DNA of 64,000 bases from Limnothrix sp. BL-A-16 (lineage in GTDB: Bacteria; Cyanobacteriota; Cyanobacteriia; CACIAM-69d): the NCBI GenBank assembly GCA_041937175.2, contig CP166615.1:416001-480000 (forward strand), written 5' to 3'. Shown here one piece after another: positions 22,504 through 24,113 of the stretch (positions within the stretch are counted from its first letter, which is position 1; every line of letters begins with the position of its first letter). Under the pieces are notes generated by a model. It saw only the letters and a program-made list of their open reading frames with translations. It was not told the DNA's origin and ran no database searches. Position numbers and translations under genes: made by a program.

Positions 22504-22541
22504 CGCGATCACCCGAGTAATCAACGGAAACAAGGGGCTTA

Positions 22542-22683
22542 GGGACTGTCGCCAAATCGCCTGAAACCCTGATTCCACCGTTGGCAGCTCGTGGGGGGCA
22601 AGGGGCTTGAGCATCTTGTTACAACGACTGGGATATGGAAAATCAATCGTTTCCACCTGATCTTAGGAAATGACGACAGGCCC
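22542..22683. mobile_element. 142-bp MITE with 13-bp TIRs and TA duplication, inserted into a REP-like palindrome
   Basis: GGGACTGTCGCCA (22542-54) vs TGACGACAGGCCC (22671-83), 11/13 inverted match; TA at 22540-41 and, after removing the IS, TA at 24008-09; empty site CAAGGGGCTTAAGTCCCTTG. Confidence 0.7.
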
Positions 22684-22691
22684 TTGTATGT

Positions 22692-22920
22692 GGAAGGCGG
22701 TGGAGCAGGAAGGTTAAGCTCAGGCATAATCGACCCTCTCCCATCCGGTAGAGACTCTGGACAGGCCCTGAAGCTCCGAAGCTTGAGGCTTAGATTGAAG
22801 AGCCGACCGGAACCCGCCTTCCCGGACACTGCCAGTAGACTGAACAGTATTCAGAGTGACCGCTTGAGCGCTGTCACCTCGGATCAAGCAAGGGTAGCAC
22901 TGGGTCAGTGACCGTCCCTC
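22692..22920 (+). ncRNA. Predicted IS110 bridge RNA (target-binding loop plus donor-binding loop)
   Basis: LTG ACAGGCCCT 22761-69; RTG GGCTTAG 22787-93; LDG ACAGTATT 22844-51; RDG CAAG 22885-88; enclosing stems 22692-700/22814-22, 22744-49/22806-11, 22827-31/22906-10, 22832-36/22899-903. Confidence 0.85.
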
Positions 22921-22939
22921 TTTCTTGTCCACCCCAACC

Positions 22940-23953
22940 ATGACTAATCCAATCTATATTCCCCTGGGCATCGACATCAGCAAACACCACTTCGATGTTG
23001 CCCTCTGCAAAGCACCCTCGACCGCTCGCAGCAAAAGTGCCTTTCACACCAGCCAGTTTGCCAACAACGAAACCGGATTTCACGAATTACTCGCTTGGCT
23101 CGAACAACACCAAGTCCACCACATTCATGCTTGCCTAGAAGCAACTAACATTTATGGTCATGAGTTGGCAGCCTTCCTGTATCAACGGGAGCAGCGGGTC
23201 AGCATTGTGAATCCTTCCCAAGTCAAGGGCTATGGGCAAAGTCGCCTGAAGCGCACCAAGAGTGACCAGGCGGATGCGGGAGTGATTGCCCAATTCTGTC
23301 GTGACCTGACTCCTCCCCTGTGGGAACCGTTACCGGAAGCCCTAGAGCAATTGCAGCAGCTTTCCCGCCGCGTGGAAGCGCTGATCTCGATGCGGACTGA
23401 GGAGAAAAATCGGTTGGACTCTTGCCGTAATCCCCACTTACAGACTGATCTACAAGCCCATATTGCCTATCTGTCGGAGCGGATTGATGACCTAAAAAAG
23501 CTTATGCGCGAGCATATTCGCGCCCATGAAGCCCTTGCTCATCAAAGCCAATTGCTCTGCTCGATTGTCGGCATTGCGGAAACCACCGCCACCAACTTGT
23601 TGGCGGAGATTGGTGTGATTCAGCGCTTTGCTTCCGCTAGACAATTTGCGGCTTTTGCAGGTCTCACTCCCCGAGAATTTATCTCGGGGACATCTGTTCG
23701 CGGCAAGACTCGATTGTGCAAAATTGGTAATGGTCGGCTGCGAAAAGCCTTCTATTTTCCAGCCTTGTCAGCCTGTCGCTATTGTCCTGAGATTGCAGCA
23801 TTTCGCAACCGATTAGTCGCGGCGGGCAAAACACCCATGCAAGCCATTGGCGCTGTGATGCATAAGCTGGCCAGGATTGTTTTTGGGGTGCTGCGGCATG
23901 ACAGACCGTTTGACCCCAGCCAACTGGCAGTCACCACAGAGCCTTGCTCTTAG
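22940..23953 (+). CDS. IS110 family transposase / bridge recombinase
   Basis: RuvC-like DEDD (LGIDISK, CLEATN, KSDQAD); C-terminal Tnp domain with AFAGLTP..SGTS (catalytic Ser) and [10 protein letters not shown]; frame intact. Confidence 0.95.
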
Positions 23954-23980
23954 GCTTTACATTTTGTCACTTTCAGACCC

Positions 23981-24008
23981 TTGCGCCTCCTCGGCGAACA
24001 CAGTATCT
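23981..24008 (+). promoter_or_regulatory. Split promoter of the IS110 circle: -35 TTGCGC, 17-bp spacer, -10 TATCT+T completed on circularisation
   Basis: TTGCGC at 23981-86 and TATCT at 24004-08; joining to T22685 gives TATCTT; integrated form reads TATCTA. Confidence 0.6.
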
Positions 24009-24113
24009 AAGTCCCTTGCCTGGCGCTCAGGATTCTGATTTTTGATGTCGGTAGAGATTTTGAGTTGTGCTCTAATCAAAGATCTTTGACGGTGCTCGTT
24101 TTCCTACCTTCCT

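Follow-up and report, generated by a model that had tools for sequence, protein, structure and literature searches.

Among the systems described so far, IS621 of Escherichia coli offers the closest comparison for the locus reported here. In the parts of the two source papers drawn on (PMC11208160, PMC11208158), the bridge RNA of this insertion sequence (IS) has a left target guide read in the sense of the top strand and a right target guide that is the complement of its target, with the core contained in both. The element in question is an IS110-family IS in a 64-kb window (the whole stretch of DNA that was analysed) of the freshwater cyanobacterium Limnothrix sp. BL-A-16, on C1, one of the 2 contigs of the 4.56-Mb genome, where it adjoins the end of a MITE (miniature inverted-repeat transposable element) that itself splits a short palindrome in the 1610-bp spacer between a manC-type gene and an EVE-domain gene. 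An RNA-guided IS110 element aimed at MITE termini is very probably the best explanation of this arrangement, which is carried by the anatomy of the element, the match between guide and target, six insertions of independent origin that all lie at termini of this kind, the existence of an empty allele, and covariation of guides and flanks in orthologues.

The targeting of terminal repeats of other transposons is already known for the IS110 family, and the locus is a clear natural example of it with no new mechanism. IS1383 reportedly integrates into the inverted repeats of IS1384 in Pseudomonas putida H, as Muller et al. are said to have described in 2001. IS1384 is a member of the IS5 family, from which the MITE here probably derives as well. 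Like the present element, IS1383 is an IS110-family element with the terminal repeat of another transposable element as its specific target; however, that target is a full IS, whereas here it is a gene-less MITE, and the guide was not known in 2001. IS4321 and IS5075 are likewise said to insert into the terminal inverted repeats (TIRs) of the Tn21 family, and they share with the present case a DEDD transposase and a fixed position in the TIR of another transposon as target, though their insertions lie inside the TIR and the crossover here falls at the boundary between TIR and target duplication. The donor junction of IS621 reportedly reads ACAGTAT-CT-TGTAT, the same as here, although a search of PMC11208160 for the string gave 0 occurrences. 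A literature search, with subscription journals mostly outside its reach, brought up no description of an IS110-family element that targets a MITE in cyanobacteria. Knowledge of the mechanism is unchanged by this locus; its interest lies in a target that exists only where a MITE has landed and in the completeness of the readout, as the guide, the target family, the numbers of unoccupied and occupied sites, and the environmental alleles with and without the IS can all be read from the sequence of this natural, well-resolved case of presumed bridge-RNA targeting, an illustration of how an IS guided by RNA can keep to a niche made by another mobile element.

The likeness to IS621, as far as the cited parts of PMC11208160 and PMC11208158 describe it, comprises full-length protein homology with identical catalytic columns, a guide RNA region upstream of the gene, scarless insertion, a multi-copy extragenic repeat as target, a CT core, a left target guide of 9 nt including the core and a right target guide starting with the core complement. 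The targets themselves are alike, being ATCAGGCC-T-AC in IS621 according to the part drawn on (PMC11208160) and GACAGGCC-CT-AA here. However, the target of IS621 is given there as a repetitive extragenic palindrome (REP), whereas here it is a TA-flanked MITE end plus the duplication, and the right guide fits 7 bases here, compared with the 4 nt stated for the right target guide of wild-type IS621 (PMC11208158, in part). No similarity emerged at the DNA level, where a BLAST search with the IS through 5,426 E. coli genomes yielded no hit. ISPpu9 and ISPpu10 of P. putida (PMC12288879, 10.64898/2026.03.19.712850) are also IS110-family elements with multi-copy intergenic repeats as targets, but the targets named in the parts available are REP or conserved intergenic sequences and not transposon ends. 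In the IS1111 group, that of IS4321 and IS5075, in contrast to the arrangement here, the guide (seekRNA) is described as lying downstream of the gene, and subterminal repeats are present (PMC11187229, in the part drawn on). The recombinase of the present element, which is about as distant from IS621 as ISCro4 is and has a natural 7-nt right guide, may be of interest for comparisons of bridge recombinases.

The analysis of the recombinase revealed matches to the Pfam families DEDD_Tnp_IS110 (E 4.1e-29, 101.8 bits, cut-off 29) and Transposase_20 (2.5e-24, 85.9 bits, cut-off 21.3), and residues 9-328 of its 337 aligned to the IS621 transposase of PDB 8wt6 (E 6.5e-68), with the ISCro4 transposase also aligning. 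The catalytic residues D11, E60, D102 and D105 and the conserved S241 and G242 of the Tnp domain, named for IS621 in the part of PMC11208158 drawn on, fall in columns that are identical in the recombinase (printed alignment, chain offset +2). The element has a 255-nt non-coding end 5′ of the gene and lacks both terminal inverted repeats and a target duplication, and by these sequence features it can be classified as an IS621-like member of the IS110 group of the IS110 family. Four copies, 100% identical over 1326 bp in BLAST, were obtained from the genome (C1:438684, 2154196, 3000077 and 3394391), no further IS110-family gene was found in it, and a DNA search of 41 genomes, this one included, detected the IS in this genome only. 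The similarity between the copies ends 9-20 bp leftward and 0-2 bp rightward of the element. The dinucleotide CT was observed at both junctions (22683-22684 and 24007-24008), which read ...GACAGGCC-CT-TGTATG... and ...ACAGTAT-CT-A..., and the exact limits are given by a contig joint in two public runs that jumps from 22682 to 24007, thereby skipping 1324 bases with 2 ambiguous ones (the CT core), as predicted for a scarless insertion of the IS110 type at a CT core. All four copies lie on the + strand, and the 15-base target discussed below occurs 14 and 16 times on the two strands; the copies are too few for this to be interpreted.

An earlier sequence-only reading of the window had described three nested layers, and these were recovered: the 142-bp segment (22542-22683) is flanked by TA on both sides, its TIRs agree at 11/13 positions (2/13 differ after reverse complementation), and removal in silico of the IS and of the segment with one TA restores the palindrome CAAGGGGCTTAAGTCCCTTG. 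The right half at the window site, AGTCCCTTG, has one mismatch to the consensus half AGCCCCTTG. Other IS copies in unrelated contexts would have refuted that reading, but all four carry the left flank GACAGGCCC plus the T of the core and sit at the same kind of terminus. The neighbour on the left is a 142-bp MITE for copies 1 and 4 and a ~190-bp element with the same terminal repeats for copy 3; copy 2 is placed inside an array of 68-bp units ending GATGACAGGCCC. Two further insertions were obtained from the four IS-bearing public runs examined, namely a lake metagenome (X1), an isolate labelled as another organism (X9) and two RNA libraries (X14 and X16). In X9, a 2118-nt contig carries the IS with 1 base different, and its flanks match C1:1981181, which in this genome is an unoccupied perfect target at a 189-bp MITE, while in X16 the right end of the IS is joined to sequence matching the MITE end at C1:3085619 (minus strand; one 233-nt contig of depth 4), a site that is also unoccupied here. 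A total of six insertion sites (four genomic and two in the runs) was thus available, and 6/6 lie at MITE-type termini.

An adjacency of this kind might also arise if MITE and IS were one composite that moves as a unit, so that their contact reflected common descent. Copies 1 and 4, both with a MITE of the same family on the left and these MITEs being 92% identical, would suit such a composite; however, the elements to the left of copies 2 and 3 are of other kinds and share the terminus alone, the IS copies are 100% identical whereas the two MITEs differ at 11/146 positions, and the MITE is kept in the empty allele, by which the composite is refuted and left with practically no probability. 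The empty allele of the window locus, with the MITE and without the IS, was found in X1 (short side of 37 bases, contig depth 8.9) and in X9 (short side of 79 bases, 1603-nt contig). Since filled and empty alleles both exist, the MITE was there before the IS, in agreement with the order of nesting that had been proposed. An allele of the manC-EVE spacer with the palindrome only was found neither in the related genomes nor in the four public runs.

The right side of the sites speaks to a different alternative, namely that the REP-like palindrome is what the IS aims at, in the way IS621 aims at E. coli REPs, and that the adjoining MITE is incidental. The palindrome is abundant, with 326 exact copies, the right guide reads CTAAGCC, which is its consensus half, and a half palindrome follows on the right in 2/4 genomic copies; but the other two continue with GGATTC and GGCCTG, the further insertions in X9 and X16 continue AAGCCCAGG and AAACCCCC, and a MITE-type terminus stands on the left at 6/6 sites. 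Moreover, the intact palindrome, ...GGCTTAAGCC..., lacks both an in-register CT core and a preceding GACAGGCC on the left. This alternative is largely refuted and very improbable. The right flanks of the six sites have CTA(A/G) alone in common, as expected if a short right target guide suffices (4 nt in IS621), and the REP half is optional for targeting.

The distribution of the target sequence in the genome also favours the MITE terminus as the target. The 14-mer encoded by the guides, ACAGGCCCTAAGCC, has 31 unoccupied occurrences compared with a chance expectation of ~0.05 from base composition, and 31/31 lie in a TIR-like context. The 9-mer ACAGGCCCT extended by one base, ACAGGCCCTA, occurs 86 times (74 preceded by CG), and the 9-mer itself occurs 163 times, with 8 within the IS copies and 83 in a TIR-like context. 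Counts of the 15-base target were 30, 11 and 17 in the three genomes that belong to the genus and 0 in each of two from neighbouring genera; a reversed 15-mer used as control was found 0 times in the five genomes. The core is formed by the MITE's final C together with the T from the duplicated TA, so that the 326 intact palindromes are not targets; as the core and the left target need a MITE end and TA, the target is created by the insertion of the MITE.

The two target guides lie in the left non-coding end on either side of a hairpin (Table 1). The left target guide matches the left flank at 10/10 positions in 4/4 IS copies, and its bases are identical to the MITE terminus plus the T of TA, as the sequence-only reading had it. 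The right target guide was compared with the flanks AAGTC, AAGCC, AGGAT and AGGCC after CT in copies 1 to 4, giving 6, 7, 4 and 6 of 7 matches to CTAAGCC, and it indeed fits the consensus half of the palindrome better than the window site (AAGTC, 6/7). The pair therefore specifies GACAGGCC-CT-AAGCC. The donor guides fit the joined ends of the element itself, ACAGTAT-CT-TG, with ACAGTAT at 22844-22850 and, at 22889-22892, CAAG, which is complementary to CT plus TG, though the core positions of the left donor guide (TC) mismatch CT. Both ACAGTAT and CAAG are conserved in orthologues, and GACAGTAT is invariant in 6 aligned sequences. Being complementary to donor positions 6-7, the AT that follows the right target guide may act as a handshake guide, and the GG after CAAG may likewise serve for target positions 6-7 (CC); these roles and the split assignment of the right donor guide are made by analogy with IS621 (PMC11208158, in part) and are tentative.

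Orthologues were collected in one scan of species-representative genomes, with the labels of metagenome-assembled genomes (MAGs) used as given, and they have amino-acid identities of 64% (Geitlerinema), 63% (Oscillatoriales), 58% (Spirulina) and 46-48% (five Abditibacterium copies). The ends of the IS are constant in all of them, CT-TGTATG ... ACAGTAT-CT. The left guide, however, follows the flank: ACGCACCCT equals the flank of its own copy in the Oscillatoriales MAG (L002) and has one mismatch in L001, whereas the Abditibacterium copies (L004-L008) have GGTGTCTCT, again equal to their flank. The right guide of the latter, TTTTGTAG, gives the reverse complement CTACAAAA, which equals the right flank of L004, with 5 bases fitting L008 and 4 fitting L006, and in L003 the reverse complement of GCCTCAG, CTGAGGC, fits the flank CTGAGG. 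Two target-guide positions thus vary with the flanks in four lineages while the donor ends are unchanged, and this covariation is the main reason for accepting the guide assignment. The stem of the distal hairpin also varies on both sides (CAAGC/GCTTG and AGCGT/ACGCT), as seen by eye in the alignments, in which the hairpins were compared because RNAalifold was of little use. The proposal that the guide is aimed at the MITE terminus is therefore borne out by 4/4 copies, the two further insertions, the free 14-mers and the orthologues. In the five Abditibacterium copies (about 1180-1260), the IS adjoins the end of a short inverted-repeat element, AGAGACACCGAT...ATCGGTGTCTCT, which at L004 is about 75 bp long, with the core CT inside its terminal repeat; landing on the ends of small palindromic elements seems to be common in this clade because the Abditibacterium orthologues share the habit. 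In L002 (about 1165-1250), the first 42 bp, comprising the left target and the start of the left end, are tandemly doubled before the IS, which could reflect an error of assembly or else an insertion that was abortive or nested.

It might still be the recombinase protein, or the likeness of the target to the ends of the IS, that selects the site, so that the identity over 10 nt would not direct the insertion. Target ACAGGCC-CT and donor ACAGTAT-CT have 6/9 bases in common, each beginning with ACAG, folding gave weak statistics, and production of the RNA is itself deduced; yet the same two left-end positions track different flanks in four lineages with constant donor ends, and the recombinase is a full-length homologue of the IS621 transposase, for which RNA guidance has been shown experimentally according to the part of PMC11208160 drawn on. 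We regard selection by protein or end likeness as very improbable.

Several observations weigh against an RNA-guided, MITE-directed element. The region 22400-24200 gave no family match in Rfam 15 at E up to 1, the presence of a bridge-RNA model in Rfam not being established. The single-sequence fold of the left end is no better than shuffled sequences (z -1.05), with the guides pairing with each other, and RNAalifold on six left ends found only 13 pairs, in an alignment that is shifted by one column between lineages. Scans for sigma-70-like promoters detected none in the integrated element and none at threshold in the junction of the joined ends; by eye, a weak TTGCGC-17 nt-TATCTT (3/6 and 4/6) spans the circle junction, and the Abditibacterium orthologues have TTGACG-17-TATGTT across theirs, the promoter of the IS621 RNA being described, in the portions of the literature drawn on, as one that is restored when the ends are joined in the circle. 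The contigs of the RNA libraries X14 and X16 cover the left end and the gene and not manC or EVE, which says nothing on transcription. The left guide of L003 fits its flank over 7 bases only and not across the core (contig of 1296 nt). Furthermore, 72 of the 155 ACAGGCCCT 9-mers outside the IS copies lie away from TIR-like ends; insertion is therefore not confined to MITEs by the left guide on its own, and one or more bases past the core are required for such confinement. Finally, no presence/absence of the MITE between strains was seen, and no joint skipping the MITE occurred in the four public runs examined.

Under the explanation that we prefer, RNA guidance to MITE termini, a bridge RNA would be made from the left end of the IS621-like IS and its target loop would pair with the 15 bases GACAGGCC-CT-AAGCC. 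Such a target would arise only where the 142-bp MITE or a related one, with the terminal repeat ...GACGACAGGCCC, has inserted at TA, and the AAGCC after the core would be half of a genus-wide palindrome that many MITEs have entered. The recombinase, of the DEDD/Ser type, would then join the circular IS (ACAGTAT-CT-TGTATG) to the target without duplication, just outside an intact MITE TIR, with the bridge RNA guiding the reaction. The crossover falls after the T of TA, and the terminal repeat of the MITE is left intact. The MITE itself was presumably mobile, an effect of the insertion on its mobility is conceivable, and the MITE ends may act as harmless landing pads, the safe harbour suggested earlier. 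With slightly more doubt than belief, we extend this to an IS that would be an obligate parasite of a parasite: the core would be absent from the host until an IS5-type MITE lands at TA, because its C is the MITE's and its T the duplication's, the right guide would be tuned to the commonest landing site of the MITE, a palindrome that the MITE holds in its own middle and would spread, and palindrome, MITE and RNA-guided IS would form a series in which each tier creates the next niche, unfolding in lake populations in which alleles with and without the IS occur side by side.

Table 1. Features of the manC-EVE locus, in window coordinates.
Feature	Positions	Strand	Basis or remark
Mannose-1-phosphate guanylyltransferase-type gene (manC)	21364-22503		NTP_transferase and ManC beta-helix domains
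Left half of palindrome, CAAGGGGCT (22531-22539), and TA (22540-22541), the left copy of the MITE target duplication	22531-22541	.	sequence read
142-bp MITE, TIRs GGGACTGTCGCCA / TGACGACAGGCCC	22542-22683	+	sequence read, family comparison
Left CT core: last C of the MITE and T formerly of TA	22683-22684	+	copy flanks; 2 ambiguous bases at empty-allele joint
IS110-family IS, 1324 bp including one CT core	22685-24008	+	BLAST, flanks, empty-allele joint
Left non-coding end, putative source of the bridge RNA	22685-22939	+	upstream of recombinase gene; guides located within
Left target guide, gACAGGCCCT, equal to MITE terminus and core (ACAGGCCCT at 22761-22769)	22760-22769	+	sequence read; flank covariation in orthologues
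Distal hairpin of target-binding loop, AAGCT-CCGA-AGCTT	22771-22784	+	pairs in single-sequence fold
Right target guide GGCTTAG (reads CTAAGCC), then AT	22787-22795	+	guide itself 22787-22793; TAGAT kept in alignment
Left donor guide, ACAGTATTC	22844-22852	+	matches IS right end ACAGTAT
Putative right donor guide region, ATCAAGCAAGGG	22883-22894	+	CAAG would read core and TG of IS left end
Recombinase gene, 337 aa	22940-23953	+	Pfam, IS621 homology
Right non-coding end, closing with ACAGTAT and core CT	23954-24008	+	
A of TA and right half of palindrome, AGTCCCTTG (24010-24018)	24009-24018	.	TA itself at 24008-24009
EVE-domain gene	24114-24605		

The segment next to the IS at this locus belongs to a large family; the sequence-only reading would have fallen had the segment been single-copy with no empty-site allele in relatives. 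A total of 69 elements of 138-144 bp bounded by TIR-like 12-mers were detected, with TA on both sides in 53/69, and 12-mers like the MITE terminus (≤2 mismatches) occur 355 and 383 times on the two strands, with TA by far the commonest neighbour (133 and 139). The TIR consensus is GGGCCTGTCGTCAAAT, and the terminal repeat is also given as GGGCCTGTCGTCA. The window copy agrees with the family consensus at 128/142 positions, its centre being a decayed copy of the palindrome. TIRs, small size, many copies and the lack of coding capacity identify the family as a MITE. The consensus palindrome, CAAGGGGCTTAAGCCCCTTG, is evenly spread over the genome, contains a single central TA and extends to about 28 bp; a short palindrome with hundreds of dispersed copies is of the REP type. 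It had been claimed to recur in the window, where besides the split copy only two near copies (≤2 mismatches to the consensus) were found, so that the claim holds for the genome, with its 326 exact copies, and not for the window in exact form. These near copies, TAAAGGGCTTAAGCCCCTTG at 5325-5344 and CAAGAGGCTTAAGTCCCTTG at 5414-5433, lie 89 bp apart.

The comparison of split and intact palindromes reveals that TA is the duplication made by the MITE. Between the halves CAAGGGGCT and AGCCCCTTG lie 16/53 TA-flanked MITEs, and two more have one TA mutated. A further 27 TA-flanked copies lie elsewhere, mostly in a cTA/TAg context, and the MITE therefore inserts at TA generally, with a preference for the palindrome. 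The consensus of 43 MITE copies holds an intact central palindrome, GGGGACAAGGGGCTTAAGCCCCTTGT, 38/326 exact palindromes lie inside MITEs, and the MITE brings along a site at which it prefers to land. Spans bounded by TIRs measure 210, 278 and 346 bp, equal to 142 plus multiples of 68, which suggests nesting, with one MITE sitting at the central TA within another. The genome's single match to Y1_Tnp (PF01797), at C1:1721528-1721869 within a 282-aa open frame, may represent the RAYT that belongs to the palindrome with its 326 copies.

No autonomous partner with the TIRs of the MITE was found in the genome or its relatives apart from a truncated IS5-type relic at C1:1150891-1151210 (L040 1404-1720). 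Its TIR, GGGGGTGTCGTCATTTC, agrees with that of the MITE at 15/17 positions, a 16-nt subterminal motif, AAACCCTGATTGCACC, is common to both, and a frameshifted open reading frame starting MTDDQWERIRPLLPPP... weakly matches DUF4096 (E 8.9e-6, below the Pfam cut-off); the relic itself stops ~320 bp from the TIR. The family of this relic is likely the parent of the MITE, and a DNA search with the relic in 41 genomes gave only a 44-bp match, in the sister species (G002). On the basis of the relic we tentatively take the MITE to belong to the IS5 family, in some subgroups of which a 2-bp duplication is typical. Other candidates were rejected as the parent. An intact IS5-type element at C1:3867273 has the TIR GAGCTAATTCAT and a TTA duplication, and a MITE-like piece beside a DUF4096 gene in another genome (G003, locus L059) is of the same unrelated IS5 type and a coincidence. 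IS630 was rejected as well, on three copies with the TIR TACAGCC....

Regarding the spacer in relatives, one related genome (G001) is not syntenic at manC-EVE, whereas in the sister species the spacer measures 53 bp and contains a 43-bp left fragment of the MITE right after the stop codon, without palindrome and without IS (L025, G002:C95, about 1430-1500, minus strand); this MITE copy differs from that of the window, and such repeats have a hot spot in this spacer.

Two minor observations concern the genome at large. The repeat HIP1, GCGATCGC, has 5209 occurrences in it, a number in keeping with a cyanobacterium. The IS630-type element, 1033 bp long with a DDE_3 domain, is present in three copies (98% identical) at the C1 origin, 1246903 and 1391348, one of which begins a few bases from the start of C1.

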